This document shows, in pieces, positions 13,455 to 61,144 of a stretch of 64,000 nt of DNA (positions are counted from its first letter, which is position 1; every line of letters starts with the position of its first letter). Source of the stretch: Takakia lepidozioides (Eukaryota > Plantae > Bryophyta); the NCBI GenBank assembly GCA_030704615.1, contig CM060732.1, positions 76,384,001 through 76,448,000 of the forward strand, read 5' to 3'. The notes under the pieces are model-generated. The model saw only the letters and a program-made list of their open reading frames with translations, did not search any database and was not told the DNA's origin. The position numbers were made by a program, and so were the translations under genes.

Positions 13455-13488
<34 letters not shown>

Positions 13489-32868: not shown

Positions 32869-35820
32869 ATGAGGGAGGAGTGGATCCATTGGTTCACCGT
32901 AGACCCGCACAAAAAGGACGGTGTTCAATGCAATCTCTATGCATTGAAGCTGGCGGGTCGCAAAGATCGCATGTTATATCACCTCGGCTACAGAGATGGG
33001 AAGAATGCAGGGGTTAGTTTGAGCCCAAAAGCCTCTAGCGAGTGAAAGCCCACTTTGCCCAATGTGGAGGCAATATCCCACCGTCTCTTGATGTGGCCGC
33101 GGCTTCTGAGCCAAACACTCCATGTTCGAATCAAAATGTCCCTCAGAGTTGTACCCAAGGGGATTCGTGGAGAAGCCGGTGGGTCAGGAGCAACCCCCGA
33201 TTGTAGCCAGCACTTGTACGAACCAGACCATTGAGGCAACAATCAATGCAATAAGGCTTAAATTTGTCGCACAGGAGGACTTTGGATAAGAAGTGGGCCC
33301 AATTTTTCTACGAGGCCAATATTCCGTTCAATGTCTCGAGGCTTCCTGCGTTTGTGGCTGCTGTCAAAGCCACGTCCAATTCCAAGTCCACATACACACC
33401 TCCGAGTTATCGCAATCTCCGCACAAGATTCCTAGAAGAGGCTATGTCTGACCTCACCCAAAAGATGAATGAAAAGACAAGTGATTCTCGCCGGAAATAT
33501 AGAAGCACTATATGTGGGGACGGTTGGAGTTCTGTTACTAATCGACCACTATTCAATGGCATACTGGTCTGTCCTGCGGGGGAACAGTTTTTGGGATCCA
33601 TTGACAGAAGCGGGGAGAGAAAAGATGCACGTTATCAAGCAGGGTTGTTGACGAGTTTCATCGATAAAATTGGAGCTGATAAAATTGTCCAAGTGTGCAC
33701 GGACAATGCATCTAACATGGTTAATATGGCCGATATTTTGATGGTACGATATCCCCATCTATATTACCAAGGGTGTGTTGAATATATCTTTGATTTCATT
33801 TTGGAGGATTGGGGAAAAGAATCATGGATGAAACAACTAGTAAAAATGGCAAGGTCGGTTGTGACGTTCATTCGTACACATAACATCCCTCTGGCATTGT
33901 TTAGAAAGCATGAACCCAAATACAGCCTTAGGAACCCGGGTGAAACCCGCTTTGCCACAAAAATTTTGATGGTGGATCGACTGGTGACTGTGAGGGCGGG
34001 TCTGGAGCAGGTGATCATTGACCCTCAATGGGATGCATATGTGGGCACCTTACGCGACTCTCGTAAGTCCAAGTCTTTGAGCAAAAGTCGGAGGGTCCGC
34101 GCAATCATTCGCTCCGACGATTTCTGACGAAATGTGCAAATTTTGTGTAGATGGTGGAGCCGGTGTTGATTGCTTTGCGGGAGTTGATGGAAAACAACCA
34201 ATAATGGGTAAAACATGGTTGATATTGGAAAACCTTGAGAAGCACGTGCAATCCTTGAGGCGTCCTCCATTTTCTATGGACGATGATTTGGCGGCAAGGA
34301 CCGAGGATGCATTTTACGACCGCAAACGGATGGTTCTCACGGACTTGCATTAATGCGGAGACCTTGCTGAATCCATTGTTGCTAGACAATATAGATTTGA
34401 GAGACGATGTGGATACCAAAGCCGGGCTTGTATGGGTGATCATGCAACTCGCGCCCTTGAACATGGCAGAGTGAGCTTTGTCCGAGTACCAGTGCTTCTC
34501 GAATCGCCATAATCCTTTCCATGACATGCCGGATCCAAAAGCAATGAACATGTTGCCACCTGAATGGTGGGATCTGATTGGAGCTGGAGCAAGAACATTA
34601 GCTCCCATTGCAAAGCCTATTCTTGTTCAAGTGTGCTCTGCCTCGTCCTGTGAGCGGAACTGGAACAGTTACTCGTTTGTTCACAACAAGTTTCGTAATA
34701 GGTTGAATCATGCCAGGGCTGACAAATTGATTTGTGTCTACATGAATTGTAGGCTACTGCGAGAGAGGACAGCAAGTGACGCATCTGCATCTTACGAGAA
34801 GAATCTGTTGTCTGAAGAATCTGCCTCAGAGGTCCAATCTAGTAGCAATGATGACACCGACGCCGCGAGGGACTCCGACTCCGACAGTTGGGATGGGTCC
34901 GATGATGTGGGCAATCCTCCACATGACCCATATGAATTTAATGACAATGATGTTGTAATGCATCCATCCTTCGATGACCTTATTATTGATGAAGTGCGAC
35001 ATGGTGTCATCCCAATTGCGGACCCCCTTCCCTTACTGGAGCACACTCTCAACAATGAAGTTGAGGTCAACTCTCCCCCACCATGAGTTCCACGGACTGC
35101 GGGAGATGTGCAGGTCGAATCGTCGGATGATGACAACCGGCCATTGTCATTCCTTCACCGACATCGTGCCTCTGTGAACCATGCTTCATCTCACGCCGCT
35201 CTATCTCATGTTTCTATTTCTCAAGCCGGTCCATCCCATGCTGGTCCATCCCATGCTGGTCCATCTAGTCTCTCTCTCCCTCATATAATTCCTTCCATCT
35301 CTCCTCCGATCTTGGGAGACGCTTCTTCTGCTGCGGGACTTCTGCAAGTCGAACCATCGGATGACGACGACCGGTCATTGTCGTTTCATCTGGCCCGACG
35401 ACGTCCGCATATGAACCGCGCTCCTTCGACCCTCGCTGGTCCATCTCATGCCCTTCCTCTCATGTCGGCCCTTCTAATGTACGTGCGAGTAGCCTTCCTT
35501 ACACGAGACCTGCTCCAAGGCCACCACGAAATCTGGGACAAGCCCAGAAACGGCAGAGAATTGTGCAACCTTTTATTGGTGACCGACTTGTGAACAGGCC
35601 TGATACCCTAGATAGTATTCATGATAGGAGTGGAAATCGACCAGAGAGACAATTGAACGTACTCCGAGGACGATTACAGGTCCAACCCTCTAGAAACGAA
35701 AGAACAGATGGAGATCATGATTCTAGCACTGATCATGGGAACGGGGGTGAAGTGAGTGGGGACGAAGATTTTGTACTAGGCATGAGATCATACCATCGTC
35801 GTCGTGCCAGACAGAACTAG
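32869..35820 (+). pseudogene. hAT transposase pseudogene with BED-finger remnant and acidic/low-complexity tail
   Basis: WIHWF..VQCNLY..RMLYHL..GVSL (decayed BED finger), DUF659 core 33264-34127, EWWDLIG..CERNWNSYSFVHNKFRNRL. Same stops as copy 1. Confidence 0.9.
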
Positions 35821-40075: not shown

Positions 40076-40889
40076 GCCACAACCCTTTTGTGTAGTTTTA
40101 CAAACATACACATAAATGTTAGAAAAAGTAAAGAAATAAAAATGGATGAATCCCATATCCGGTACCGCATGGGACTGGCATTTTTTAAGATGGCATAATC
40201 GGTAGATTGAGAACCGGACCAAAAAAAAATTCATATGTTTAATGAGAACCTATAACCGAGATGTTTTTCAAACCTATTGGTATACCCTGCCTTGGCCATC
40301 CATTTTTTTCAAAGAGTAGGCTGTAACCGGGGCCGGAAGAGGGCTCAAACATGGTACCCGGCCAACACTAGTAAATGCTCCCTCACTGTCGACATATACA
40401 TAGGGGTGCTCTTGCCACTTCCAAACATATCGGATTTAATTGAAAAATTGCATAAAGCCGTAGCAAGAGCGACAAACCCGCCTCTGGCAAATGTGGAAGA
40501 GAGTCAGCACTCGCCTAGAACGCTATGCATGATGGCAAGGGTGGACCACACAACATTGGGTCCCTCTTTGACCACTCGAGCCCAGGCTCAAACTCTCTGT
40601 ACTGGTGGAGGCACGTCCTTTACACCCGGAGCATCTTCATCAGCATTTGGAGATGACGACAACGAAGTAATAAATCTAGATGAAGATAACTAGAAAGGCT
40701 AGAAACATAGGGAGTAGGCCAAAGGTCTCAGGTTGCGAAAACTTAAATGTGCAACCCACTGTATAGTCTATGTAATTTTTGAAAATACGAGGTTCATCCT
40801 TTGAACCATTTTTGAATGACCTCATACTTGTTCGATACCTGTTTGACGGCATGTACAATATACTAGCAAAATTTCAAAACAATCAAATC

Positions 40890-41230
40890 GTGAATGGAAC
40901 TTCGCCCTGTCCTCCTCCCATTCATCCCCGGCCAAAGCCTCCCTCATTCTCATCTCCATATTGTGCTGGAATCTAAGGAACCCCTCATTCCCATGTCGGA
41001 CATACAAAAGATTCAAACGCATTATGTTATTGTCCTTCAAATAATCCAGCATTACTTGCTTCACCACCTTTGCGGCCTCTGCGCTTGGATAGTCTTTTTT
41101 GTTGACCCGACTATCCCGTTCATGTGCATGTTTACGCTTCCTATCTTTACGCCCACTTCCCGAGGAACCCCCTGACACTGTGTTCGAAGCAACGTTTCCG
41201 GACATGATGAAAGTACTCTGCGTAATAGAC
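40890..41230 (-). pseudogene. Second copy of the kinase gene N-terminal region
   Basis: Near-identical to 22285-22621 (MLDYLKDN.IMRLNLLYV.H.NEG.LRFQHNMEMRMREALAGDEWEEDRAKF). Joined directly to a satellite piece at 40780-40890. Confidence 0.85.
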
Positions 41231-42229
41231 AACTCAGTTTCATCTCGTTCAGGTACCCATGGAGGGAGTAGTGAGAGGAAAGTCGCCAGTAGCAGGGATC
41301 TGTGGGTATGACATATTCCACCATTGCATTGTTGAGGTTTGCCCATTACCAATAATTATCCTTCTTATTTCCCTTTTGACTTTCTTATGTTGCATATGTT
41401 GGAATTTAGCCAGCATCTCTTAAACATGAATTGCGTATGTCCTGGCATGACTGACTGTCTTGGCTGATATGGCAATTGCCAAAAGCTCCAACTGGGGAGG
41501 TGCCTTCCAAGGAGGAAAGTCTAAGTGTGTCCTCTTGCAGATGGCTTACAGCAAAGGCAGGCTTTCACTGTTCGATCAGTTGGCATATAAGGCTCCACAA
41601 TCAGGAGCCTTAGACTGGCATGTGCGTACTTTAAACTCAAGCTCCCCTACAAGAACCACACCTGCTTTATTCTCAACATTGTCAAAACGCCAAGTCATAG
41701 TCAACAACTATTAAAATAACAACTAATAAGTTAAAAATTGTTTGTTATGTGTGTTGCAATTAAGCGTTTCAAATGACACAGGTGCCTATTACTGACTTGG
41801 GCATATGACTTGAGTATTCATTTACTTACCCATGACTGCTTAACTCTGTTTTCTACTTCTGTTTCATAATAACTGAGTGTGGGCATAGTACTTACCTGTA
41901 TGCACCCATGGAGATCATCCTTTCCACCTATGTTCTCTATGTGCAAGCATTTGGATTGGATGGATCCGTGGGCAGGGCAATGATCTTATTCAACAACTCA
42001 CCTCCGGCTCGGCATCAACCCCACACAAGGAAACAGTTTTCGACAAATGAGAACTTCCAGATGAAGACATCGACGTGGACTCCGACTTTGAGTGTACGTA
42101 AGTCCGGTTTGTTTTGGATGACATGTCGGATTTTTCATTTTATCAGACCTTCATTTTTGTCACAACCGCGGTCCTGTCTTTCTACTTACTGGGCTTGCAA
42201 CTTTGGGAATCTTTGCAGGACACCAAAAA

Positions 42230-43145: not shown

Positions 43146-43598
43146 TGTCGTGCGCATACACCTCGCTACACAACTACATCGGTGTCCAAACCACACAACA
43201 TATACATACACACAAATCAGTCTGCCACAATATGCACAAAACCAAACCAACATTTCACTCATAAAATAAGAATCAAGCCCACTACACCCCCAAGGCTTAG
43301 GGGAATCAACAATACACGCGCCATAGCCGACGCGGGAGGCTCAACTTGAGAGAGATGAGCCTCACCGCGCGTTCGCCGTGAAGATAAGCCACGCCCAGGG
43401 GCCAACAAATATCTTGACCCCTGGGTTGACACTTGGATCAAGCCCAAGTGTCATATATAAAAACTAGTTATTTATTGGCTAGTTTCACACTACTAGTAAA
43501 CTTTATTTGACAGCTGTCGTGCGCATACACCTCGCTACACAACTACATCGCTGTCCAAACCACACAACATATACATACACACAAATCAGTCTGCCACA
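43146..43598 (-). repeat. 3' LTR of family A with 86-bp direct repeats at both ends
   Basis: 43146-43231 matches 43515-43600 (one mismatch seen). Begins TGTGG after the PPT, ends CGACA. TATA-like motif near 43455. Confidence 0.7.
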
Positions 43599-43854
43599 AT
43601 TGCCCCCCTAGCTGGTGGTTAGGTCCCTCTAACTCCAGATAGCTACAAGAGGTAATAGCCACAGCCTCAATAAGTCCTCTATCACTGTCCCTATTGTACT
43701 CAAACTCTATAGACCAAGAGGCCGGGTACAAGAGTAGCCCCATCGTTATTCGCCGTCTTGTGTGAACTTGAGCCAGAGATCTCATGTATTGGTCCCATAG
43801 TATCTTGGCCTTGTGGTTCTTATTAGTCTCCCATGGTTGTATCCATTGCCACTA

Positions 43855-45281
43855 TTAAATGCAACGTGGACACAACCAGTCCCCATCAGGAACCATATCA
43901 AGAGGAGGCGTCAAGCATCCCATGTGCCAACCTCTTGAGCATCGATCGTACACCAGCATGGTGGCTGCCCTTCTGGCAGACCCACACAACATGCACCGCA
44001 AACCTGCAGGTACCACCGCCAAGTTTGGGTCAACCCTTCCATCAACATTTGGAAGGTGACATGGCGCGCAATTACGCACATGGTCCTTCCAAGTCATGCC
44101 ATCCCGACCCTCCAAGATCAGGAATCCTGAGGGCAACACCTCTCGAACCCTCAAAATAGTACGTCCTGCAGTCACATCCAGGGTCGTAGGAGCAGTCTGT
44201 TGCAAATAAACATAGTCATCAGGGTTAAATCTCCGAACCCTAGGACAATAGCCCCCACCACGTATGGTAGCATACCTCAACGTATTACGATGCTGTGCAA
44301 TGGCAAGGTTATCGAAAGCCATGGGCATGACTTTCTTGAACAACTCTGCACGCTGATCACATGCACATGCCCACACGTCCGGATCGTCAAGGTTGAGAAC
44401 TATAGCAGCTTCTCTACGAATGGATGCAAGCAAATCTGGCTCTCGGCCAAAGAGAAGAAAGTATGGTGAGAAAGAGGCAAGTGATGCTTGCTTGCTGAAC
44501 CTGTAGCCCATGGCTAACCAGGGTAACTGAAGATCCCAATCTCCTAGGTGTCCCTTCTGCAAGCCACACTTGCACAAACCCCTCTTCACTGTCTGAACAA
44601 CCCTCTCTGCCAAGCCATCGGCCTCAGGATGATCCCGAGAAGTGGTGCGGTGGTCTACCAAGGCCTTATCACACAACGCCTGAAACTCCCCCAAGAACTC
44701 TCTCCCTTGGTCTGTGAGTACCTCAGCTGGAGCACCGAATCGGCTAAGCACACAATCCAAGAATGCATACGCAACTCCCTCACTAGCCTTATCAGGCAAT
44801 GGAACCAATTCAATCCACTTGGAGAAGTGCTACACCATCACCAACACGTACTTGTTGTGGCGCATGGTCAGTGGCAACGGCCCTGCGAAGTCAAGACTCC
44901 ACCTGTAGCCCAATCCCATGTTCGGAAGAGGGTGCAATTGTGGAGTAGGGGCGTTGAATGAAGCACGCACCCTGTCACACACCATGCACCTAGCCACAAA
45001 TTGTTGCACCTTTGTGTGCATACCACGCCACCAATACTGCCCCTGTAGTAGACTATGAGTGTGTTGCACCCCAAAATGCCCCAACTCCTCATGGGCATGC
45101 CGCACTAACCGTGCCCGCTGTGTTGGGTGAGGCACAATCTCACTCGACCATCCTCCCACACTCGGAGCAGGTGTGTCCCCTCCTACTTGAACCTCTTGGC
45201 TCGTTGTAGGATCCGATCCCTCTCCTTGGCAGTCACAATGGCTGCAGTGTCTCCAGTGCGGAGGTAGTCCAACACAATGGG
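43855..45281 (-). pseudogene. Integrase with C-terminal PHD finger
   Basis: HEELGHFG..CMVC, WSLDFAGP, TDQGREF, GLAER; tail CMLC..(C>Y)DRC..WHMGC..VPDGDWLCPRC. Confidence 0.92.
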
Positions 45282-47205
45282 GGCGAACAGGTGAGGACCA
45301 TGAGGCGCAGGCCGCATCCATGGCACACGTGGGAGGTGCTTGAGGTTCAGAGGGAGTTGGCAGCCAATGCGGCGTTGATGGATGAGGTTGGGGATTTTTC
45401 TTGGGTTGAGGAGGTCCTTAAGGATGGGATGATGGGGCAGGATGAGACATTGTCACTGATAGAGTAGGCAGTGGTCACTGCTCAAGAGGTTGCAGCATAG
45501 CAACCACGGGACGCGTCTTCTACCTCTAAGCCTGCTGGACTCAAGGTTGCAGTCACGGAGGACAACTGGGAGACTGATATTGGACCCATAGTCACCGGAG
45601 GAGAGAGACGACGTATACGGCGGTTCTTGAGGGCTTACAGGAACTGCTTTGCCTTTTGTTTGAAGGACTTGGGAGTACTGAAGGGTCAAGAGATTCGCAT
45701 TGAATTGGCCGCTGACACGCCAATCTTTCAGAGACCCTATAGATACAGTGACATGGAGAGGTCCTTGATTCAGATGAGGACTCAGGACCTCTGGGAGGTT
45801 GGTTGGGTGGAGCTATCTGGTGGAGAGTATGCTTCAGCCACAATGATGCCAGCCAAGAAGGATGTCTATGGCAATTGGACGGAGAGACGTATGTGCGGTG
45901 ATTACCGGCCTGTAAATCGTCAGACCAAGTCCGATAGGTATGCCATGCCAACACCAGAGGAGATCTTTGATGCCATTGGGCATGCCAAGGTCTTTAGCAC
46001 TTTGGATTTACGATCCGGATATCACCAGTTGCCGATCATAGAGGCGGATAAGCAGAAGACGACATTCTGGGGGATCAATGAGCACGGGAAGGATTGCCTA
46101 TACCAGTGGCGGTTCTTACCATTTGGGCTTAAGAACGCTCCTGCAGAGTTTCAGAGAGTCATGGACAGGATTCTAGCAGGGGTGGAGTTTGCTCGGTGCT
46201 ACATAGATGACATCATCATCTTTAGTGCTATGGTGGAGGAGCATGAGAGACACCTTCAGGTGGTATTTGAGCGCTTGAGGGCGCACGGATTGAAGTTACA
46301 TCCGGGGAAGTGCAAGTTTTTCCACAACCAAATTGAGTATCTGGGTCACATGATATATCCTGGAGGATTGGGGGTACAGTAGACTAAGGTAGAGGCCATT
46401 GCACAGATTCCACGTCCCACGGATGTGAGCCGAGTTCGAGCTTTCATGGGGTTGGCAAACTATTATAGACGGTTTGTCAAGGGATTTAGTGCCATTGCAA
46501 AGGCTCTAACCAAGCTAACCAAGGTGGACCAGGAGTGGCAGTGAGAAGATGAGCAAGAACGAGCTTTTCAAGAGCTCAAGGCGAGGTTGACCTCAGCGCC
46601 CATCTTGAGACGACCTATCAGGGGGCGTCCTTTTCAGCTGCATACAAATTGGAGTATGCTGGGGCTTGGAGCGGTGCTCACACAGGTGGATGATGAGGGA
46701 AGAGAGTTCGTAGTGGTTTATATTAGCCGCTCGAACAACGCTGCAGAGGCTAAGTATAGCTCATATAAGGGAGAGTGCTTAGCTGCAGTGTGGGCCGTGA
46801 CACACTTCAGGTGCTATCTATATGGCAATCTCTTCACCCTTGTCACGGATCACCAGCCACTCAAGTGGCTGATGGAGTCAGACAAGCTTATAGGAAAGCT
46901 TGCATGATGGACACTCATACTCCAGGAATATGACTTTTAGGTGGTACATCGACCCGGTCTAGTCAATCGGGATGCGGATGGGTTAAGTCGTAATCCATGC
47001 ACGAGCCAGCAGGATGACACTGGAGCTTGGTGGCATGGTGAGACGGACGAGGAGATGGTGCCCGGATGACATGCATCTGCATTTCTGTGTATCTTGGCAG
47101 CGGAAGGCCAAGTTGGACCTGCAACAGGGATGACTGTAGATCAAGTGTCTGTGGACCCTGAGGCCAACAATGAGCAAGGTGGCGCCAAAGATATACATGA
47201 GGATT
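45282..47205 (+). pseudogene. Reverse transcriptase + RNase H of family A (inverted segment)
   Basis: RMCGDYRPVN, LDLRSGYHQ, LPFGLKNAP, YIDD (~46200), HTNWS, GECLAAVWAV, TDHQPL, NRDADGLSR. In-frame stops at 46380, 46542, 46905 and 46938. Confidence 0.92.
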
Positions 47206-48200
47206 CTCTATCAAGGGAAGTGTACTCCGTACTCTGCGCTGCTCAGCCATAGCCAAGCTGATAATCCAGGTCAAACAATTGAGATCCATGGCTTGCCCCA
47301 ACACCTGACGACGTGATGCCTCAGAAAGAGATGGCACCGCCGTGGTACCAATGGTAAAACCCATCGCCCGCTTGCGCTTGTCAACATTGGGCTCCACTAA
47401 TTGCTGCAACTGGCTATCCCACAAGAGGCCAGGTCCACCATCCCGGAAAACATGAGATCCTGGAAAGCTGAGCAGTGTAGGCAATGTTGCTTGTGGGTGA
47501 CCCACCTTATTGACCACTGCCAAAGGTGATCGGTCATTGTGTCTCACACACTGAGACTGCCTCCCTATGTCCAAAATGCTATCAACCGTGAGGTTTGGTG
47601 GCCGCTGCACCCCATCAAATGCACGCTTGAGCATTGCAGGTGGCATCAAGTTGGTCCACCATAGTCGTGGGCGATGAGCCCGTGACCCTACTGCAGCTGC
47701 ATCCAGCAATACTGCTGACCCAAGCCAAGATCGCACTTGATGCACACTGGTCACCTTGGCCCGAGAATCACCCATCAATGGCACATTCTCCAAGATATAT
47801 GCCGGAGAGTCTGTTTGCTGAAGCTGTAAATAGCGCAGGACCCTCAACATCTCCCAAAACATGCGTGACCTTGAGTCTTGTAACCCATTGCCATGCCCGG
47901 CTGATGAATGCCCTTGGCAGGGCCAACCTGTCACTACCAAGTGAATAGGGCCAAACCGCTCCAAATCCTGCGCCCCCAGCAAAGAGATGTCTGCTGGCAA
48001 GGCTTGCTAGTATCCACGAACTGCAGACACTGGCAACAAATCAGGGTACTGCTGTACCAACTGAGCAACATGGCGCAGTGAGACGCGTCGTGCAGTCTCA
48101 TCCCTCTCCACATACAAGTAACGTCGAACTCGTACACCTGCCTGCAACACTGCAGCCAATCCAGTGCTGATCCCGCCAAACAAGTCCAGAAGACAATGCC
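47206..48200 (-). pseudogene. C5 cytosine DNA methyltransferase domain within the retrotransposon polyprotein
   Basis: Motif I LDLFGGISTG, II YVERD, III ADI, IV GWPCQG, VI LENV, VIII HRPRLWW, IX KRAMGF, X LGQAMD. One stop at 48007. Confidence 0.93.
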
Positions 48201-49256
48201 TTCGTCCGGGCACTGCCATACAAGAGGTATGGTGTTCAATGGCGACAACTGAGGTGGTCCTGGTGCAATCACCGCACTCTCCTCCTCTCCTGACGGTACA
48301 AAGGCATCTACCCAGGCTTGTTGCACACGTCTATCAGCAGCCTGCTGCAAATCCTTGCTCGTACCCCACAATGGAGTGTGAGCAACCATGGCAGGCAACT
48401 CCGCTGTACCATGCATGTCATCCTGCTCTGCTGGAGGTGGCACATCCTCTGCATGGGCATTGCCCTCCAGCAACTCTCCAGGCCAACTAACTGCAGCTGT
48501 GAAGGCTGCTAGTGTTGGCATCTTGCCCCGCTGGGCAGCAGCAATACCCCCAATGAATGTCACATGGAGCTGTACACGACGACCATCCCCTGACTGCCAT
48601 CCAGGACTGTAGGATGCTGACTCCTCCCAAAAATCCAGGATGAAGCCCATGGGATACAACACTGCCCCACCAATGAGGACATCGTAAGAGACCGTGTCTG
48701 TCACAATGGCCTTGGCTCGCATCACTGAGCCATCTATAGGATGATCCGGCTGTAGTCTAATGGCCAACTCACACCGTGTCATGCCCCGAGCCTGCTCTGA
48801 TCCTCCCAGAGATGTCTGTATCTGGAAGGGACAAGGCTCCATATCCGCCTTCATGAGGCCCAAACCTGCAATACCGACTTTGCCCAACATCAGTGGCTGA
48901 GCTCCCGAGTCCAACAAGACCCGCAGTGGCCGGTACCTCTTGCCTGCCGGTCCACTCAAAGAGAAAATGTCATCCTGGTTGTCTAACAAGACAACATCAG
49001 GTGTCATCATGGCGCGCTCAAAGGCTGGCCTAGCTGGCAGCTCCGTCAACCTGGCAGCTGCAGCTTGCCATGGCGCAGCCGTGACAGTCTTGACCCTCAA
49101 ATCTGAGGATCCCTTTGTCACTACACCTTCCACTAACTCCGCAGAAGATGAAGTGACCTCCCCACTCTCACAGAGTGTTGCTGCTAGTCTGAACATTGCA
49201 GCTGGTCTACCCCCGGCATCGCAATCATGGTTGCTGAGAACAGTGGGGCCTGACAC
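48201..49256 (-). pseudogene. Aspartic protease region of family A
   Basis: VLLDSGAQ and YDVLIGG. A 1-bp frameshift near 48195 separates it from the DNMT frame. Confidence 0.85.
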
Positions 49257-51152
49257 ACAGAGGTGGCCGCCCCCAACAACACACTGGCTGCACTAGCCTT
49301 GGCAGCAGGTGTCAGTGCTGCACGTGTAGCTCTTCCCAATGGCACAATAACGGCCTCTGCTTCAGTATCTGTCGGGCGAGAACTAGGTGCCATGGATGTT
49401 GTCGACCCTGTCTCTACCAAGATGAATGATTGAGGCAACCTAGCCTTACGGCTTGCCTCCCCACGCTGTGGATCCAACTCCACCTCTGCACCTCGTGGCT
49501 CAGGAACTCGTGCTGCTCCTCGAGTGACGGCTGTAGCAGACTCCACCTGCACTAGTGGTAGTGTTGCCCCACACATAAATCCCATGCCTCCCATGTCTCC
49601 TCCGTCAAGATGACGCTGCTGAGGAGGAACAGGAGGTGGACCCTCAGGTCTTGGAGCTGGTACCACCTGAGCTGTGGCCATGGCAGCAAACCTTTGCTCT
49701 AGCTGCTGAAGCCGGTTGGCCATACCTTGGTCAACGCCCTGACCTCCGCGTCCTTGGCCATACTGTGCTTGCCCTTGTCCTGCACCTCGTGCCTGGCCAC
49801 CTTGTCCTCTCTGAGGTGCTCCACCTCGCTCTCGGCCACCATTGTTCCCTTGGAACTGGCCTCGCCGCAACTCAGGGTGCAAGTCATAACACTGGGCATC
49901 TCCATGCCCATACTTGCCACAATGCCCACATTGCAACTGTGCAGGCTGTGTTTGTGCCGACCCTTTGCCACTCTCTGGGCAATCTTTCTTGACATGGGGT
50001 TCTCCACATGTCCAACATACCACCCCTGGTTGCTGTTGGCCTGCAAAAGATGCTACTGGCCTCTGCACCTGAGGTCCCCTGTAAGCTCCATGGAATTTGG
50101 GTTGGGCAACCTTGCCCCCCTGACCACACTGTTGGGCAGTCCCTTGTGCCTGTTGGCTGGCAGCTGCACCTCGTGCAGGCATGTCCTTGCCAAATCCAAT
50201 GGTAACAACTCGCTCTTCCACCATGTTGAACTCAATCCGCTCAGCCAGCAGAAACACATCTGCTAATATGGGTTGGGCCGCTTGTAACAGGGTTGCATCC
50301 CGCACCCTTCTCCTGAGCTCCTTGTCCAAAATTCCATACTAGAACTGGATTGCCTAAGCTTTAGTAACCCCTTGGGTCACACTTATCAAGCGCCTCATAC
50401 GAGTGTAGGCCTCTCGCAAGCTCTCACTGGATTTGCGCTGGAAGTCTTGCAAACTTCGAAGCTTCTCTGTCCGTACGCCTTGGTAGTTCGTCCGCAACTC
50501 ATGGAAGAACTCCACCACCGGGTTGAATTTAGGCACATGTGTTGTAGTTGTGGCAGAAGGAGTAGTAGCACCTTTTGAACTGGTACCACCTGCAGAAGTA
50601 CCGACACTACTTGTTCCACTACTAGTGCTGGCAGTGGGAGATATTGGTGCTGATGCAGCTATTGGTTGCGTCGTGCCTCGAGTAATGGAAACGTAATCAG
50701 GTGACCAATACATCCTCCACTCCTCAATCTCTGCTTCATGTCCTTGCCTGAACTCGTGGTAATCGTCCATAGGCGAGCCTTCAAAATGCTGGAACAGTCC
50801 CTTCCACGCCATGAATGGGGTTGTTCATTGCGCATCTACTACAAATCACACCAGCTGTCGAACTCCTGGATAAAGTCATCCAGCTCGATTATGCCCATAG
50901 CTCCAGAGTACCTACAAGGCCCCTTGGTAGCTCCATACATCTCCTCCATGTCGTCCCACAACAATGGCGAAGGAAACTGCACACCTGTTGATGAAGCCTC
51001 CGAGTCTGTGTCAGACTCTGCACTAGTTCAGGGTGGAGATGAAGATGGTCTGAACCGAACACCTCGTCTTGTGAACCCACTCTCACTGCTACCGCGTGTA
51101 GCCGTACTCCCCTCAAAACCCTTGGGTGACTCCGTGATGACACTCACAACCC
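49184..51152 (-). pseudogene. Gag of family A with two zinc knuckles
   Basis: FQRKSSESLREAYTRMRRL capsid-like motif; CWTCGEPHVKKDC and CGHCGKYGHGDAQC. Probable ATG at 52187, separated by the solo LTR. Confidence 0.85.
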
Positions 51153-51157
51153 GCACC

Positions 51158-52174
51158 TGTTAGAGGACTGTAGGGGACTTAGACACTTATACGGGATCTG
51201 TAGGGTACCCTTAATTTTTGCACAGACTGAGACCAACAGGAGCCTTAGGGGTGACAGCAGCGCACTGTAGAGGGGGGTTACACAGTCAACACAGCCCGTC
51301 ACAGTCGTCACAGCCCACACAGCCAACACAGCCCGTCACAGTCGTCACAGCCCACACAGCCAACACAGCCCGTCACAGTCGTCACAGCCCACACAGCCAA
51401 CACAGCCCGTCACAGTCGTCACAGCCCACACAGCCGACACAGCCGTCACAGTCGTCACAGCAGACACAGCCCACACAGCCAGTCACAGCCCGGCACAGCC
51501 ACACAGCCAGTCACAGCCCGACACAGCCAAACACAGCCAGTCACCGCTTGACACAGCTGTCACGATAATAGGGAACGACTGTGGGGAACAACACCTGTGA
51601 AGGGAACATGTTAGTTCACAGACGACGGTTAGAGAGGGAAACGGTTAGAACCGCGGATAGGAGGATAAAGGGAGAAACGGGGAATGAAGGAGGATCATCA
51701 TTATTCGGAGGAGGACTTCTTAGTCAGTGGGAGCGGAGATCAGAGGAAAAAGCTGGAGAGCACGGTGAAGGAGGAAAGAGGATTAGTAGATGTTTGTTAT
51801 ATGCAAAGCGGTAGTGATATTGTAGAGCAGATTAGAGACATAATGGCTTCGGCCTGATACCTGATAAATCATAATCTGATACTTACACGATACAATCACA
51901 CTGTGTAGAGAGATCTGAGTGAAGCTGTGGATTGAATGGATGAGTGAAGAAAACCGATAGATTGATGAAGCAAACTAATACTTAATTATCAATGGTAAGG
52001 TAGCTAAGATGAATGCGAAAAGGGAAACAAATAGGAAACACCCCCATGATACACTAGCTGTAGGTCATGACTGATTGTTCTGCGCGGGCTGAGTACTTAG
52101 AGATTTCCAACTCTTCTATCTTGGAGTTTCCGCCTCGGATAGCGAAGGGATGGGTGAGTAAAAGCCGCGCGACA
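51158..52174 (+). mobile_element. Solo LTR of Gypsy family B
   Basis: TGTTAGAGG...CGCGACA, homologous to 53284-54392. Perfect 5-bp TSD GCACC (51153-51157 and 52175-52179). Confidence 0.95.
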
Positions 52175-52722
52175 GCACCTCCCCCATGTAACACTATAAG
52201 GCTCTAGTACTAATTCTAATAGTGACACGGGTGAGCACCTGTTGCGGATTAAGGGTCATATCCTAGTGGTTAAGGGCACCTGCACCTGCATCCACCGCAA
52301 GAACTCCTATGGTTGGCTGGTCATCAACCCAGCCTCACCATAGAGGAAACACTGGTGGTCTTGCTAGTCATCACTCCAGCCTCACCACCGACAGTATACT
52401 CTAGGATTGACCGGTGATCAAATCTGGCCTAATCCCTATGAAAGTAAGCGCCCACACAAAACCAACATGGCACACAGTCAAGCATGCAGGTGTGGGGGGG
52501 ATCCAAACACAAGAAACCAAAACATCAACACCCCCACACCAAAATCCCTCTGCAGTGCTGTTCCTGCAGAATACCCCAGCCCAAAAACCCCGGACTGACT
52601 GGCCTCCACCAAGAGAGGCTTTGGCAACTACAAGTACAAAGTAATGAAAATAGTAAAGAGAGGGAGGGGAAGAATAGAGGCCCGACCAAGCAAGATCTAA
52701 TCCTGATCTATGCTATCAACTG

Positions 52723-53283
52723 TCAGACTTCTCTCAAAGTGCCTCGCTCTGCATGATGGTAAGGTGTGGGAGGTATATCTATGTCCAGAAACCTGCCACT
52801 AACCTTATCCCAAGCTACAGTAGCTCGCTCTAACCAACCCTCCTCCTCTTTCTGCCAGGTAGAGACAAAGCAATACTCCCCTATCTCCCGCTCACTGAAT
52901 ACTAAAGAAAATAAAGTTAGGGTCTGACAGTCTCTCAACTCGAAAGCTTTGAGACGGTTGCGGGTGTCCTTGTTGCGAATGACTGCATCTCCTTCAAACA
53001 GAACAAACTGTTCATTGCTAATGAACCCCCGCTCGTGGTTGCCTCGTGCAGAGCGTGTCTGGCTGCAACCACGTTTGATTGCAAAAACTTGTGCAGCTCC
53101 TGCTTCTCTGCTCCAGTACACCACGGCCTTGTGGCTGAACACCTTGGTCCTCGAGGCTGTCTTTGGCTGTGTTCCAAGCCTAGCTTTCACCCACTTTGGT
53201 ATTTCACCTACAGCTGCAGAACTGCTTGCTCCAACAGAGTTCTGACTGTCCAAAGCAATATTGAGGCCCTCAACGCCAACTAC
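52723..53283 (-). CDS. Possible extra ORF upstream of family A gag, 5'-truncated by insertion
   Basis: Frame is open from the insertion junction at 53283 to the stop at 52723 (~186 codons). No motif recognised. Confidence 0.4.
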   Translation of the reverse strand, partial: VVGVEGLNIALDSQNSVGASSSAAVGEIPKWVKARLGTQPKTASRTKVFSHKAVVYWSREAGAAQVFAIKRGCSQTRSARGNHERGFISNEQFVLFEGDAVIRNKDTRNRLKAFELRDCQTLTLFSLVFSEREIGEYCFVSTWQKEEEGWLERATVAWDKVSGRFLDIDIPPTPYHHAERGTLREV

Positions 53284-54392
53284 TGTTAGAGGGCTGCTTG
53301 GGACTTAGACGCTTTTACGGGATCTGTGGGGTACCCTTAATTTTTTACACAGACTGAGACCAACATGAGCCTTAGGGGTGACAACAACAAGCTTTAAGGG
53401 GGGAGATACACAGCCCAACACAGTCCATTACAGCTCGACACAGCCAACACAGCCAGTCACAGTCAACATAGCCCGTCACAGCCAACACACCCGGCACAGC
53501 TTCGCACAGTCACATAGCCAGTCACAGCTTAACACAGCCGACACAGCCCGACACAGCCCGACACATTCCATCACAGTCCAACACAGCCCGTCACAGCCCG
53601 ACACAAACCGCCACAGCTTCGCACAGCCCGACACAGCCGCCCACAGCCGCCACAGCTTCGCACAGCCCTACACAGCCCGACATAGCCAGTCACAGCCCGC
53701 CACAGCCTGATACAGCCAGTCACAGCTCGGCACAGCTGGGGAACAGTTACCATTGGTAGGGAACGACTATGGAGGAACGACATCTGAAAAAGGAACGTGT
53801 ACTACAGAGATAACGGTTAGTTAGGAAAGCGGTTAGAACGGTTAGTAAAGAGATAAAGCGGGAAGCGGGGACATCTCGGGGGATCACTTCTGGGGGAGAG
53901 GATCGCTTCTTGGAGGACTTCGGACATCACTGGGGGGAAATAAAGCGGAGAGTGCATCTTTGAGTAGAAAGAGGGAGAGCACGGAGTAGGAGGGGAACGA
54001 TCTGTTGATGCTTGATGAATGCAAGCAGTAGAGTTGTAATGTAAAATTAGAGACTTCATGGCTTTAGCCTGATACTTGATAGATATTAATCTGATTCATA
54101 CTTCATACTCACACTCTGTAGAGAGATCTGAGTGAAGCTGTGGAATGAATGGATGAGTTGATGGAATCCGATAGATTGCTGAAGCAATCTGATACTTAAA
54201 TACCAACAGTAAGGTAACTAGCTAACATGAATACGGGAAGGAATACAAATAGGAAACACCCCCATGATACACTGGTTGTAGGTCATGACTGATTGTTCTG
54301 AGCGGGCTGAGTGCTTAGAGATTTCCAACTCTTCTATCTTGGAGTTCCCACCTCGGATAGCGAAGGGATGGGTGAGTAAAAGCCGCTCGACA
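53284..54392 (+). repeat. 5' LTR of family B, containing a CACAGC-rich tandem array
   Basis: TG...CA ends; matches 63832-64000 and 51158-52174. Confidence 0.95.
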
Positions 54393-54979
54393 TTTGGCGA
54401 CCATACTGGGGAACTGGGTCATGAACAACCAGATGTGAGAGGCATCTGGTGGGATCATGGTGGATGGAGAATTAAAGAATTTGATGTGAATCAAATTCCC
54501 TGTGAAACTGAGAAGGAAAGATTGTCCAAACGATTCTTTCAGAGGTTCTTGGAATTGCCAGACGGTTGTAAAGAAAACATTCTTAAAAGAGTGCATGATG
54601 CTGACCCTGAATGGGGTCTGGAGAAAGGAGTGATAAAGATTTATCAGGTGGCCTGTAGAGGAAGAGCACGTTGGTTACCAACACTGGTTTATGTGATAGC
54701 ATTGCTATCCATTAAGCGAGTAGAGTTTGAAGGCTGGGAGGAAAGAAAGGTGAATGTTTATACTCATATGCATGAGAACTTGTACTGGTAAAGAACTGGA
54801 TCCCAAAGGATATCTTGTGGATCAAACTCACACCAAGAACAGCTTTTCAGACTTGTTTACCATATGGGTATATGGTAACGGAGACTTCTAGTATATCCAG
54901 AGGAACATTGAAGCTTGAGAGAAACCCAGGCATATACGAGAGATATTACAGAAGAGAGTTTTGGTTATTGCCACATTAA
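54285..54979 (+). pseudogene. Extra 5' ORF of family B (1-bp deletion near 54775)
   Basis: Homologous to the open ORF 27684-28379 (CATGAAGAAC vs CATGAGAAC). Confidence 0.65.
54395..54412 (+). promoter_or_regulatory. Primer binding site (tRNA-Arg-like)
   Basis: TGGCGACCATACTGGGGA 2 nt after the LTR, identical at 27794. Resembles the tRNA-Arg PBS of Tat/Ogre elements; tRNA identity is inferred. Confidence 0.75.
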
Positions 54980-55000
54980 AAGAAATAAAAGACATGGGAC

Positions 55001-58000
55001 ATGAGTGATGAAAGAGAAGCTAGACTCCAGAGATATTCAGCAAAAAGAGAAAGCTATCTGAAAGCTAATTATCCATATCTTTGGGAGAGAGGAATAGACA
55101 TAGGGGAATCATCTGGACCTCTCACACCATTAAGATCAGGGAGTACATCACCCATACCGGAAGAACTAGAGTTGGATGCCACTCCTTCTTTTTCTTTGAA
55201 AGAAAGATTAAGGGAATTGGTACGGGAAGAAGATCAATCACGAGGTGAAAGATTTGAGGTACATCCCTGGATAAAAGATTTGACAGAAATCTTTGATAAG
55301 AGTTGGCATGGAACACCAAAAGCAGGAACTCCAGCTTCTAAAGCGGAGGGTGAAGAAGGAGGAGAGAATGTGGCAGAACCAACGGAGAGTTCAGACTCTC
55401 CAACACCATTGCAGTTGAGTTACATGAGTGAAGAAGAAACCCAAGGGCAGAACTTGGAGGATGAAAATAGAGAGAAGAAATTGGAAGAGGAAGAGTATGA
55501 AGAAGTAGACCCAACAGCTGAGGTTGAGACTACAACCAAGACATCCCAACCCGTTGGACCTGGATCAAGTGGAGCACTTGGATCACAGGCCAACGAAGGT
55601 GTCGGCTCAGGGGGATCAGGCGGGCTGCCTGGATCTGGCTCTGGGGGGACAGGGAGTGTGGGAAGTAGTGCAACTGGAGCTGGGAATAATGTGAATATCG
55701 TGGGGCCAGTAGCAAGGAGTGCTCAGGGGCCACCACTTAGTGGAAGATCCACCACAACTACAACAGGTCCTCAAGGACCAGCACCGGCAAGGGTGCCAGT
55801 ACCTGTCGGTGGGCAGAAGGTAGGGCCACAGATGGCGTTACAACCAACACGGGCAAAACCACCTTTTCCAATATATTCAGGAAAAGGGGATCCCGATGTA
55901 CACATAAGCCAATTTGAGCACATGTGTATAGTGAACAATGAGAATAGCGTTGATGCCAAGATGAGATTGTTTCCTTGTTCACTTATCAAGAAAGCAAGTG
56001 AATGGTATGCAAGATTCCCTGATAATCATTTCCTAACCTGGAATGGCTTGAATACAGCATTCCGAAATAGGTTCAGGACAAGTAAAACTGAGGATGAAGT
56101 GTATGGAAGTTTACAACAGTTAAAGCAAAAGAAGCATGAAATTGTTGAGGAGTATATGGAAAAGATGGAATTGATGATGAAAAAGCTGGCTGCTGTACCA
56201 GCACCAGGTTTACAGAAGACTTGGTTTGTGAGTGGACTAAGACCAGAGTTGCAGAAGAAAGTGGATATGTTACCCCATAATACAGTGGAGGAGGCATTTG
56301 AAACTGCAAATAGAATTGAGCAATTGGGAATGCTCAGGAGAGAGAAAAGGGATGATGAGGACTCTGAGGATGAGTCAGATGAAGAAGAAGAGCAAGAACT
56401 GAAAAGGAAGAGTAAGAGAAAGGAGAAGTTGAAGAGGGATAACTATGAGAAAAGATTAGAAGAAATCTTGAAGAAATATGCCACAGAGGCTGCAACACAT
56501 TAGAGGAAGGGTGTTTGGTGTGCAAAGTGCCTGAATGAAGGCCATACCACCACTGAATGCCACATGAAGGAGAAACACTGTACTATCTGTAAGATGGATA
56601 ACCATTCTACTGAGAATTGTTACTACAACAGAAGGACAGCTGCAAGAGAACCTAGGCAAGTAAGGGTGCATCAAGTGCAACTCCAGCCAAGAAGAAACAA
56701 TGATCATGACCACTATGGTAGGCCTGGTGGTTATAACAATGGCATGGAAGGGAGAGGTAATTCAAGAGGGAATTACCAAGGAAATTCAGAGGAACTATTA
56801 GGGTAATCCAAGGGGGAATTACCAGCCAGGGAATCAGGATTACAGAAATAATCCAAGAGCAGACCAAGGGCGAGGACCCAATGGTGAAGAACTGTGTTAC
56901 TATTGTAATCAGCCAGGACATCGAAAGGCAGCCTGTTCGTTCTGGATTACACCAGAATGAGATGAGAGCTCCTGTGAATGAGGGCCCAGTGGTGGCAGCT
57001 CACATGGTTAGGCCATGTGTTGTACCAGAAGTAAGTACAATGATAGTAACAAGAAGCAAAGCCAAACTAATACCTCCAGTAGTTGAGGAAGATGATGATA
57101 ATGAAGATGGCAGTGATATGCCTGAAGATGATGAGGCTTGGAGAGATGAGAAGGAACTGCACAAGGAAGTGGCAGATACCATAAGGGAAATGTAGAAGAG
57201 TACTGATATTCCTGTGGCAGATTCCTCTGATTCTGATGGAGAAGAAGAAGTGAGTGAGGATGAAAGGAAGAAAGAAGTTGCAGACATGCAAAGTAATGAA
57301 GGGACTTTGGCTGAAGTAATATGCCAGACCAAAGCAGAGATTACCATTGGACAGCTATTGGCTGTGGCACCTTAATGTAGACATAGGCTGTATCAAGCAA
57401 TCAATCGAATTGCCCAGGAGACAAGAAACACAGACCTGAACAGCAAGGTGACCAATTATAATGTGAAGCCGGAAGGGCGAGAAACAGTCATGGACTTTGA
57501 TGATTCTATGCCAGTAATCCAATTGAGAATTGGAAGCACAGAACTAACTGATGTACTGATAGATGGAGGCTCTGGAGTAAATATCATGACAGACCAATTA
57601 AGGAAGAAGCTTGGTCTAAGTAACATGAAACCAGCCCCATTTACAGTAACAATGGCAGATCAAAGAAGTGTACAGCCATTGGGATTGATAAGAGGAGTTA
57701 AGATACAGATACAAAAGATGATCTTTATGATCACAGTAACTGTGTTAAAGATGGATGAAGTCATGGAGGCTTACTCCTTATTATTGGGACGTCCGTGGCT
57801 GAAACAGGCCAGGGTATTCCATGACTGGAATTCTCAGTTACTAACTGTGTATAATGGAATGCACGAGATACAAATTACCACCAAGAAATCTAGTAGATTA
57901 CCTACTACGAGAAAACCTCGAGGGGTCAGAGAGTATGACTGGAGAGGAGGACTGGATGAGGAGCAGGAAGCTACCCTGTTCGCTGCACACCCAGAGTGAG

Positions 58001-61000
58001 AGCAGGTTGCAGAGATGCGGCTGGAAGGCCTAAGTTGTTTAAGAGGTATCTACTGTGGTGTAGTGTCAGCAACACCAATTGAAGAGGAAACCAGCAGTTA
58101 CCCATCACATTTCTATGAAGAAAGAGAAGGAGAAATGGAAATCCTAGAGGAACCAGCCACTGTGAGTTTACATGATGAAGTGGTGACTGGTTGGACAATC
58201 ACAGCTGATGAGCAGGTGAGGGAAGTGAATGTGGGAACTGAAGAGGAAACAAGGATGGTGAAGGTAGGAGCTGATTTGGAGCCAGAATTCTTTGAAGAAG
58301 CTAAGAGTTTGTTCATCAAATACAGAGATGTATTTGCTTGGAGCTATGAGGATCTAAAAGGGATACCACCTGAAATATGTCAGCATAAGATTGAACTGGA
58401 ACCAGGATCAGTACCAATCAAGCAGGCAAGGTACAGAATGAATCCCAACTATGCACAGAAGGTTGGAGAAGAGATCAAGAAGTTGGCTGAGGCTAAGTTT
58501 ATATACCCAATAGAGTATACAACTTGGTTGTCACCCATTGTGATAGTTCCCAAAAAGAATGGTAAACTAAGAGTTTGTGTGAACTATAAGAAGTTGAATG
58601 CTTGGACGAAGAAGGATCCATTTCCCTTGCCATTCACAGAAGCAGTATTGGACACTGTGGCAGGCCATGAAATGTACTCATTCATGGATGGCTTCAGTGG
58701 ATATAATCAAGTGCAAGTGACAGAAGAAGACTAGGGAAAGACAGCTTTCATCACAGACTGGGGTGCTTATGCATACAAAGTCATGCCTTTTGGACTTTGT
58801 AATGCACCAGCAACATTTTAGAGAGTGATAAGTGAATCTTTTCATGAGTATCTGGATGATTTCATGCAGGTGTTCTTGGATGATTTCAGTGTGTACAGCT
58901 CTAAGAATGAGCACTTGCATAAGTTGGAGTTATGTCTGGCCAGATGCAGGATGAGAGGTCTGGGCCTGAATCCAGAGAAGTGTACTTTCTGTGTGAACTC
59001 AGGGGTGCTTCTGGGACACATTGTGTGTAAGATGGGATTTCTTGTGGATCCCAGGAAAACAGAGGCCATTAAAGCCTCTCCACCACCAGTAAATGTTAAG
59101 AGTCTAAGGAGATTCCTTGGGCAAACCAGTTATTACAGAAGATTTGTCAAAAGGTATGCACAGATAGCAGCACCATTGAGCAAGTTTCTGAAGAAAGATG
59201 CAGTGTTTGCATGGACAACTGAATGTCAACAGGCTTTTGAGGAACTTACATTGTCAGTAACAACTACACCTGTGCTGATTAACCCTCACTGGCATGTAGT
59301 ATTTCATGTTCATTGTGATGCCTCAGGAGAAGCGTTGGGAGCGGTGTTAGCCCAAAATGTTACAGGAAATATAGATTCACCTGTGTACTATGCTAGCAGG
59401 TTGATGAACAGTGCTGAAAGAAATTATAGCACAACGGAAAGAGAAGCATTGGCAATGATCTATGCAGTGAAGAAATTCAGGCATTGCCTGTTGGGCAAGA
59501 AGTTTATGTTCTATGTGGATCACTAGGCTCTGATATACCTGGTAAACAAACCTCTGATAAGCGGAAGAATAGCAAGATGGTTGATAATCTTGCACGAGTT
59601 TGAGTTCAAGGTTGTTTACAAGCCTGGGAGGCTGCATCTTGTGGCGGATCACTTGTCACGGTTATCAACAGGAGAACCAGCCGTGGGAGTAGATGATCAA
59701 TTACCAGATGCGAGTCTATTTGCAGTGGAGGTGCAGGGAAGTGCAGATGACTGGTTAGATTGGCAGTGGCCAATCAGATACTACCTTGCTCATGGTCAGT
59801 GCCCACCAAGTTATGGAAAGGAGCAGAGAAAGAGAATTGCTATCAAGGCTCTACCTTACACTATGGTAGGGAGCAGAATGTATAAGCTAGGACCAGATGG
59901 AGTGCTGAAGCGATGCTTGTACCACCATGAAGTAAATAAAGTTTTGGAGGAAGTTCATAAAGGAGTGGCTGGAGGTCATTTTGGAGAAGAGACTACCAGT
60001 AGGAAGATACTACTGGCAGGTTACTGGTGGCCTACTTTGTTCAAAGATGTACACAAGTATTGTCAGAGTTGTGATGAATGTCAGAGGCTAGGACCTTTGC
60101 AAAGATCTGGGAAGATGGCTTTGCATCCTACAATGCCTACGGAACCATTTCAGAAATGGGGACTAGATTTTGTTGGACCAATAAACCCACCAGCCAAGAA
60201 TACACAGAACAAGTACATAATTACAGCCATTGATTATACTACGAAGTGGGTGGAAGCTAAAGCTTTGAGGGACAACACATCCAAGTCCACAGCAAGGTTC
60301 CTGTATTAGAACATACTTACACGATTTGGCTGTCCCTTGGAATTTATCAGTGATCAGGGAAGTCACTTCATTAATGAGACCATTGAATTATTGACTAAAG
60401 AGGTCATGATTGTGCATAGGAAGAGTACAACATATTACCCACAGGGTAATGGGCAGGCAGAGGCTACCAACAAAATACTATGTATTATCTTGGCTAAGAT
60501 AGTCAATGCAAACAGAATGGATTGGGATACAAAGCTGCTGACAGCTTTGTGGTCATACAGGACTCCATATAAAGTCACCACTAAGTATACACCATTCCAA
60601 TTAGTTTATGGTATGGAAGCTTTACTTCCAGTGGAGTTTTTGTTACCTACCATGAGAACTGAATGAGGAAGAAGAATGGAATTGGAAGATTCGATTAAGG
60701 TCAGGAAACATGAATTATACCATGTGGAAGAAGTACGAGCTGATGCAGCTGACAACATGACCAGAATTCAGAGGAAAAGGAAGGATCAGTTTGATGAAGG
60801 GAGGTTGAAGACTTTTAAAACAGGAGATTTGGTTTTGTGGTTACAAAAGAAGGGAAAGATTAAAGCTTCTAAGCTTAAATCGTCATGGAAGGGACCTTAT
60901 GTCATACAAAAGATGTATGATAACAACACGGCCATGTTATAAACCATTAACAAAGAGATGCTGGGGAGAGTCAATGCCAACAAGTTGAAATGATACAGTG

Positions 61001-61140: not shown

Positions 61141-61144
61141 TCGA

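Follow-up and report, generated by a model that had tools for sequence, protein, structure and literature searches.

A DNMT3-like methyltransferase upstream of a conserved, predicted leaky stop codon in a Ty3/Gypsy retrotransposon family of bryophytes

The 64,000 nucleotides of contig CM060732.1 from the bryophyte Takakia lepidozioides that were analysed here, hereafter called the window, contain a Ty3/Gypsy retrotransposon copy in which a DNMT3-like C5 cytosine methyltransferase (DNMT) domain follows Gag and the protease (PR) (Table 1). The copy is dead, as a first-pass annotation of the sequence had stated: 12 premature stops and 4 frame changes interrupt it, and one further stop lies in the linker. 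Four of the premature stops fall in Gag, which is also frameshifted near 50825 and at 49205-49247, one (a TAG at 48009) in the DNMT domain, five in the reverse transcriptase and RNase H (RT-RH), whose matches span 45501-46907 on the plus strand, and two, together with one frameshift, in the integrase (INT). The protease of the window copy gave no match in a Pfam scan. At the equivalent place in the relatives P0018, P0035 and L023, Asp_protease_2 is matched under the cut-off (E 9e-5 to 5e-3), and the window frame shares 44 % identity with the Marchantia protein P0002. The DNMT domain had been described as joined to the protease frame save for a frameshift, and the protease frame indeed runs up to a frameshift near 48190. 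The C-terminal linker of the domain is cut by an inversion.

Table 1. Positions of the retrotransposon features in the window
Feature	Position	Strand	Basis or remark
Element 5' region	50950..53283	-	Interrupted by solo LTR of another family, ~51153-52174
Gag with zinc-knuckle region	49205..50949	-	Retrotrans_gag E 0.004 (under cut-off); tblastn with P0002
Aspartic protease, LDSG ~48911	48600..48950 (approximate limits)	-	Motif read in frame
DNMT3-like C5 cytosine methyltransferase domain	47206..48195	-	Last domain of Gag-PR-DNMT frame
Inverted block: DNMT-RT linker, RT and RNase H	45278..47206	+	RVT_1 E 2e-32, RT_RNaseH E 5e-29
In-frame stop with readthrough context, TAG CAA CCA (UAG-CAR-YYA)	45498..45506	+	Between DNMT and RT
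Integrase: H2C2 zinc finger, rve core, C-terminal PHD finger (~43858-43995)	43855..45277	-	Pfam
Conserved non-coding motif GATGGGGC-N7-9-ACCCGGCC	43720..43744	-	Between pol stop and polypurine tract
Polypurine tract	43602..43611	-	Follows the conserved non-coding motif
Repeat B, first copy, ends ACGACA	43515..43600	-	85/86 bases identical to terminal copy
2-base spacer and repeat A (starts TGTCA)	43232..43514	-	B/A junction ACGACA-GC-TGTCA
Repeat B, terminal copy (element 3' end)	43146..43231	-	Repeat comparison

That this block is inverted in the window copy follows from strand switches in contigs of two runs. In run X10, the 5009-nt contig of record 9, which comes from another organism, aligns on the plus strand to 43594-45277, on the minus strand to 45278-47206 and again on the plus strand to 47213-48506, and a contig joint of run X3 shows the matching switch. 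The inversion is either genomic or an assembly error, and the contigs fit both; about 39 bases are missing at its DNMT side. The placement of the DNMT between protease and RT given by the first-pass annotation holds as the order of the family, but in the window copy itself RT-RH are inverted. Compared with other copies in run X1, 284 of the 574 differing sites read T/A in the window and C/G elsewhere, as would be expected if methylated DNA had decayed. CpG depletion (0.46 in the window element, 0.28–0.70 in relatives and 0.18 in the neighbouring Gypsy) is uninformative on the target of the methyltransferase.

The 5' end of the element falls outside the window. At 53284 its 5' region is interrupted by a nested Gypsy element of the plus strand, recognised by gag and RT matches, which reaches past the window end, while the solo-LTR insertion is supported by the joint 51152/52175 in X1, X3 and X5 and by repeats at 51157, 53284 and 63832. 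This other plus-strand family, whose LTR contains ACACAGCC micro-repeats, is present as the nested copy (53284-64000), the solo LTR (51153-52174) and a decayed copy (27070-31400), and has an extra degenerate frame after the integrase (~62200-63800). Two copies of a hAT-type transposase region (17158-19157 and 33255-35086; DUF659, E 1.7e-34) are flanked by arrays of TGCGACCACC repeats of about 50 bases. In the regions 7093-9652 (minus strand) and 9700-13700, decayed transposase-like frames, one piece of which was scanned with no Pfam match, adjoin 53-base and 173-base repeat arrays with long inverted arms, and two related short frames of about 120–180 codons lie on the minus strand at 21959-22501 and 40822-41355. 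The land-plant genes earlier noted in the flanks of the element are recovered in part: a phytocyanin (PF02298, E 4.8e-9) and an F-box protein with a plant-type beta-propeller are confirmed by Pfam, whereas the PPR sequence at the insertion site is a decayed remnant, seen by eye as two short pieces with no Pfam match. These flanking sequences suit a land-plant host, and the relatives of the element point to a bryophyte; a search with the F-box protein gave 2 matches at 26 % identity among 2184 candidates, too few and too distant to narrow the lineage.

The methyltransferase motifs LFGGISTG, YVERD, GWPCQ, ILENV, HRPR, RAMGF and LGQAMD follow one another in canonical order on the strand of gag, protease and integrase, so that reading the frame bears out what had been noticed at first pass. 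The profile comparison suggested there also gives a match: PF00145 is found in the translation, its one TAG read through as X, at E=1.3e-9, which is over the curated cut-off. Among 30 matches to PDB sequences, 29 are DNMT3A, DNMT3B or DNMT3C (best E 5.6e-13, to DNMT3A/3B), and the sole other match has an E of 6.5e-4. A structure predicted from a 26-row alignment (pLDDT 82.9) finds DNMT3A/B as all of its top Foldseek matches, with DNMT3A best (E 2.5e-15, TM 0.64/0.76). Across 57 DNMT domains, the catalytic Cys is kept in all 57, the Glu of ENV in 54 and the two arginines of RxR in 55 and 50, while motif IV reads EC instead of PC in 27. The clade with the shared stop described below keeps both PCQ and ENV. 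The EC variant is common in algal relatives too. A recent phage origin of the domain is not supported, as viral contigs gave only 11 weak phage methyltransferases (E 2e-7 or worse); a search of the ESM Atlas returned only phage-dominated PF00145 clusters.

The first-pass annotation had placed the DNMT inside a polypurine tract (PPT)/LTR boundary; a PPT does lie 3' of the domain, but the termini are split direct repeats and not ordinary LTRs. Five complete loci have the arrangement A-internal-PPT-B-A-B and the termini TG and CA; an exact 4-base target duplication flanks three of them, one has a duplication with one mismatch and one has none. No second (5') copy of repeat A occurs within the 64-kb window. 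Contigs of X1 and X3 have loose ends at 43145, at the 3' end of the element, which was inserted into decayed PPR sequence, judged from PPR-like frames read by eye. The inner junction ACGACA-NN-TGTCA, with at most one mismatch per half, is found in 13 of 23 sequences as against 99 of 4600 shuffles. Because this B/A junction resembles joined integrase ends, a circular or end-extended intermediate cut by the integrase may be involved. A TGG primer-binding site directly after the 5' repeat is absent in 6 of 6 sequences read by eye, and the family lacks the two full identical LTRs with a tRNA primer-binding site by which Ty3/Gypsy elements are recognised. Its Pol order is nevertheless the PR-RT-RH-INT of Ty3/Gypsy, with a DDE integrase (rve, H2C2), and the RT-RH of L023 is closest to Ty3 (E 3e-69; next 3e-42). 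Membership of the DIRS order is rejected by the DDE integrase and the 4-base target duplications. No chromodomain was matched by Pfam in ORF2 of L023. The GATGGGGC/ACCCGGCC motif, sought with at most two mismatches, occurs in 9 of 14 sequences of the readthrough clade and in 0 of 9 of the other clade, and is possibly a small hairpin or priming signal.

Relatives are found well beyond the window. A search for longer proteins gave 53 matches among 7991 scored candidates, and the 22 that are plant-named all come from bryophytes: 19 from Marchantia polymorpha (best 73 % over the whole domain), one from Calypogeia fissa (74 %) and two from Sphagnum. A domain-length search gave 227 matches, and M. 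paleacea and Riccia sorocarpa appear as further species among the 120 listed; vascular plants are absent from the named rows of the protein matches listed. Since the Marchantia, Calypogeia, Riccia and Sphagnum matches lie on contigs of up to 49 Mb, presence in land plants is independent of the window, and the suspected DNMT-bearing Gypsy family of land plants is confirmed in these four genera. In metagenomes, 448 of 549 pattern matches encode relatives, and in the best 80 of these 448, which were analysed as loci, gag-DNMT-RT-RH-INT-PHD all lie on one strand. A 48 % identical relative, P0082, is deposited as a Candidatus Obscuribacterales MAG protein on a 2.4-kb contig; a bacterial source was rejected, and mis-binned plant DNA seems likelier.

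A scan of 1.84 billion representatives widened this picture with 179 clusters at E <=1e-30. Most of the 80 listed new proteins of at least 580 aa have the order RT-RH-DNMT-INT-PHD or part of it, 22 of them complete, and about 10 of the 80 carry the DNMT after the protease or before RT. Twenty scan proteins that were looked up provided as named relatives Scenedesmus (with the order RH-DNMT-INT), four Closterium and one Klebsormidium nitens. The RT-RH-DNMT-INT-PHD proteins (P0186-P0318, P0042 and P0195, one being from Scenedesmus) form a clade of 25 rows (SH-aLRT 96). A second clade, 36–42 % identical and stop-free, has GWECQ for GWPCQ and mostly ENT for ENV but keeps the catalytic Cys (L042, L045-L048, L050, L052-L057, L059, L061-L067, L069, L072-L076 and L078-L080). 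At L009 (1-2025) and L079 the two DNMT clades are adjacent or nested, hence both reside in one host genome. Sequence comparison thus indicates that the domain has a long history in Gypsy elements of the green lineage and that it has moved within the element, two positions being occupied. In the parts of the literature examined, no chlorophyte example of a Gypsy-borne DNMT was found.

A quick DNMT tree of 76 rows with SH-aLRT values, computed without bootstrap, took 8 phage methyltransferases as outgroup, and the trees left out host DNMT3, DRM, CMT and MET1. Marchantia, Calypogeia and Sphagnum join the window in a 15-row clade (SH-aLRT 99), nested in a 27-row clade that shares the stop but has a value of only 87. 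In an RT tree of 35 rows the matching clade has a value of 99 and the main groups agree, which points to co-inheritance of the two domains and no more, as kin share traits. The K. nitens domain lies within a 68-row element clade (99) against the phage outgroups, in a tree that holds no host DNMT3, and its protein match supports the kinship to charophyte Gypsy-DNMT3 elements that had been suspected. A calculation of dN/dS, also suggested at first pass, revealed purifying selection on the DNMT, with 0.09–0.18 in seven diverged pairs between subfamilies. One pair reaches 0.71, and the DNMT medians within the two large decayed groups, 0.52 and 0.37, resemble those of RT (0.52 and 0.30). Pairs of the window with its relatives have pN of 0.20–0.36 and saturated pS.

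A stop codon lies between DNMT and RT in the family. Sixty of the 80 loci span both the DNMT end and the RT start; in 37 of them, here called close, the DNMT is 45 % or more identical to that of the window, and the 23 others form a distant clade. All 37 close loci have an in-frame stop at most 40 codons before RT, and in 33 of the 37 a TAG or TAA is followed by CARYY, whereas of the 370 decay stops in these loci only 5 precede it. The distant clade has the CARYY stop site in 0 of 23 and any stop in 5 of 23; looking ahead of its DNMT for a stop in common gave three columns of ambiguous frame. The exact TAG-CARYYA context occurs in 6 of 37 close loci and CAACCC in 26 of 37, a large Sphagnum-like group; among the remaining contexts, a second stop replaces the first codon in 3 of 37 and 1 of 37 is unrelated. 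These 37 loci are not independent, as the Sphagnum-like group accounts for about 29 of them and five small groups for the others, but CARYY is seen in five subfamilies, the window's own counted in. The linkers between DNMT and RT vary in length (255, 300, 387 and 393 nt), yet 27 of 37 keep one frame, the remaining 10 being frame-shifted. In L023, 1369 codons of Gag-PR-DNMT are followed by TAG CAG TTA and then, in frame, by 1047 codons of RT-RH-INT-PHD. The single open reading frame gag-PR-DNMT-RT-RH-INT that the first-pass annotation expected is therefore absent from this clade, in which the stop parts Gag-PR-DNMT from RT, although one frame holding both DNMT and RT is present in the distant clade and in P0183, P0279 and P0037.

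In the window, four runs examined over 45380-45620 list no variant at the stop (4/4 runs), where depth is highest. At the neighbouring stop at 45465, other copies differ in nearly all of the depth in 4/4 runs; this stop was rejected as the recoding site, being private to the window copy. Protein models tell a similar story: of 18 long proteins inspected, which include duplicates, 17 stop a short way past the DNMT and have no RT. Five of them are Marchantia models of 1278–1281 aa, encoded on autosomes and the V chromosome. Tobamoviruses, benyviruses and pomoviruses have UAG-CAR-YYA as their type I readthrough motif (PMC3542737), whereas readthrough between gag and pol is rare among LTR elements and described for gammaretroviruses and a few Copia elements (PMC3441728). 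We consider readthrough of the conserved UAG very probable on the basis of these alignments, and its position after the DNMT implies that as much methyltransferase as Gag would be produced.

These features suggest a chain of events to which, as a whole, we assign a probability of about 0.6: a leaky UAG, a DNMT made at Gag level and packed in the particle, and methylation of the element's own cDNA. Most ribosomes would stop after the DNMT and yield Gag-PR-DNMT, while a minority would read the UAG and add RT, RNase H and the integrase with its PHD finger. The DNMT would enter the particle with Gag and be freed by the protease, steps that appear likely. Conservation of the catalytic residues makes it quite probable that the family enzyme is active, and once freed it would be locally concentrated around the new cDNA and methylate its cytosines, although the choice of this cDNA as target is favoured only slightly over others. 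The element would probably benefit because its new copies are methylated on arrival and so resemble host chromatin or are silent from the outset. The PHD finger of L023 is closest to those of CHD4, PHF12, PHF21A, KAT6A, ATXR5, KDM5 and UHRF1, and these fingers are mostly readers of unmodified H3 tails. Judged from these closest solved relatives, the finger on the integrase may steer integration to nucleosomes with unmodified H3 tails. Related SymbioDIRS-Dnmt3 domains carry out de novo CG methylation in yeast; KnitGypsy-Dnmt3, the closest relative assayed, gave no methylation there, a result its authors call inconclusive (PMC5890265). Since the second clade and the algal relatives are stop-free, and the chlorophyte-type DNMT lies between RNase H and integrase, Gag-level expression would not be a universal need.

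The RT-RH-INT part could be expressed by splicing or re-initiation instead of readthrough, as in Ogre elements, and the gene models P0007 and P0040 do skip the stop region, though perhaps as artefacts of the predictor. Re-initiation would be helped by an early AUG past the stop, which exists in three subfamilies in all and lies only three codons downstream in the large Sphagnum-like group; in L023 and L001, however, no early AUG is present, the first one lying within RT at codons 117 and 48, respectively, which makes re-initiation unlikely as a general route. A single CARYY stop in five subfamilies with differing linkers, and the frame kept across most of these linkers, also speak against such expression, as does a 2173-nt contig of run X8, RNA by guess only, that crosses the stop without a gap. 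We therefore hold such expression to be quite improbable. Still further from the evidence, the DNMT might be a captured fragment of a host gene or a locus-specific assembly chimera. The locus is rearranged by inversion and nested insertions, and the trees were built without host DNMT3, but most of the metagenome pattern matches encode relatives, the domain occupies the equivalent position in liverwort, moss and algal proteins, and it has no introns in the window or in relatives such as L023. In run X1 the contig depth of the DNMT (516–896 thousand) resembles that of the remaining element (~500–1160 thousand; flank 39 thousand, values that give no copy number). DUF3444, which is part of the definition of plant host DNMT3s (PMC6453930), was not found by Pfam in the element proteins scanned. 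The reading of the domain as part of the element and not host cargo, proposed at first pass, consequently stands; intact relatives such as L023 refute a captured host gene, and this last explanation has almost no probability left.

The function of the enzyme leaves more room for alternatives. An active DNMT released by the protease could act in the nucleus and methylate integrated copies, competitors or host chromatin, as a self-limiting or competitive regulator. Expression at Gag level would yield far more enzyme than one cDNA requires, de Mendoza et al. consider consequences for the host and a slowing of transposition (PMC5890265), and the mark is meaningful in mosses, where host DNMT3b makes most CHH methylation (PMC6453930). 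Pfam nevertheless detects no targeting domain beside the DNMT in ORF1, the PHD finger sitting on the integrase, and relatives with the DNMT inside Pol tie the domain to the pre-integration complex, so that action in the nucleus appears unlikely, if the most serious of the competitors. About half as probable is that the domain has been kept to bind cDNA or RNA in the particle, or to methylate RNA, and not for DNA methylation. The inactivity of KnitGypsy-Dnmt3 in yeast (PMC5890265), the EC at motif IV in nearly half of the domains and a stoichiometric expression that fits a structural part could all be understood in this way. Against it stand the near-invariant catalytic Cys, ENV Glu and RxR, the retention of PCQ and ENV by the readthrough clade, and a sequence and fold nearest to DNMT3A/B and not to DNMT2. 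Methylation of the element's own cDNA by a packaged enzyme thus remains the preferred reading. Its most inclusive form is more tentative, with somewhat less than even odds: an old, intact land-plant lineage would combine an active Gag-stoichiometric DNMT, a virus-type leaky stop, the marking of its own cDNA with 5mC ahead of integration (with host chromatin as a further possible target) and a replication intermediate with split repeats that a DDE integrase cleaves.

Retrotransposon-borne DNMTs are known from dinoflagellates and charophytes, as the first-pass annotation had stated (PMC5890265). The closest parallel is KnitGypsy-Dnmt3 of Klebsormidium nitens, likewise a Ty3/Gypsy element with an intronless, unpermuted DNMT3-related domain under purifying selection and, as far as the legend of its Fig. 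4c allows the comparison, a DIRS-like repeat layout (PMC5890265). According to its text description it differs in being known from a charophyte only and in having the DNMT in the Pol ORF (PMC5890265); in the bryophyte family, by contrast, the DNMT is the last domain of the Gag frame, ahead of a leaky-type stop, and the integrase has a PHD finger. The K. nitens protein GAQ93235.1 (35 % identity over 321 aa, E 4e-55) shows, by eye, a Gag-like region, a protease motif and the DNMT in this order. SymbioDIRS-Dnmt3 and SymbioLINE-Dnmt of Symbiodinium are also retrotransposon-borne C5 methyltransferases but belong to other orders (tyrosine recombinase and LINE) and represent independent captures (PMC5890265). 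EpiLTRs and DAM-LTRs of Cymbomonas and Euglena share the Gypsy-like nature and the pairing of a DNA methyltransferase with a chromatin reader, but theirs is a sister of DNMT4, accompanied by a Dam domain and a chromodomain, and their authors distinguish them from streptophyte Gypsy-DNMT3 (bioRxiv 10.64898/2026.05.21.726589).

With tobamovirus-type readthrough the family shares an in-frame UAG before the polymerase in CARYY context (PMC3542737), but its largest subfamily has C at the sixth position, unlike the viral UAG-CAR-YYA (PMC3542737), and the stop follows a protease and an accessory enzyme, not Gag alone. The unpermuted catalytic fold is common to the host plant enzymes PpDNMT3a/b and animal DNMT3A/B; unlike these host DNMT3s, the family DNMT is intronless, has no DUF3444, PWWP or ADD and is about 22 % identical to DNMT3A.

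What was already known is Gypsy-DNMT3 from charophyte algae; what appears to be new is its presence in land plants and the location of the DNMT on the Gag side of a leaky-type stop. A 2019 review states that methylase-encoding transposons do not occur in land plants "such as tracheophytes" (PMC6338049), a statement whose general form the bryophyte copies contradict. In their accessible text, PMC12344493 and bioRxiv 10.64898/2026.05.21.726589 mention the elements for "streptophytes" and do not name bryophytes, "Marchantia" is absent from the main text of PMC5890265, and the accessible portions of PMC6453930, PMC11244446, PMC11982613 and bioRxiv 10.1101/363937 hold nothing on Gypsy-DNMT3 elements. 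No bryophyte Gypsy-DNMT3 or readthrough site was found in the literature covered, which includes few subscription papers or repeat databases, and an earlier mention is possible.

Why a transposon should carry a transposon-silencing enzyme has been a question since 2018, for which a tractable host has so far been missing. The mechanistic news is that the enzyme lies on the abundant side of a predicted recoding site. Bryophyte DNA methyltransferase gene counts may include unrecognised element-borne copies. Several full-length Gag-PR-DNMT frames are present in Marchantia polymorpha, annotated as hypothetical proteins, and this liverwort is a genetic model with methylation mutants; with these full-length ORF1 copies, the self-methylation hypothesis of 2018 could be put to the test in a model plant.
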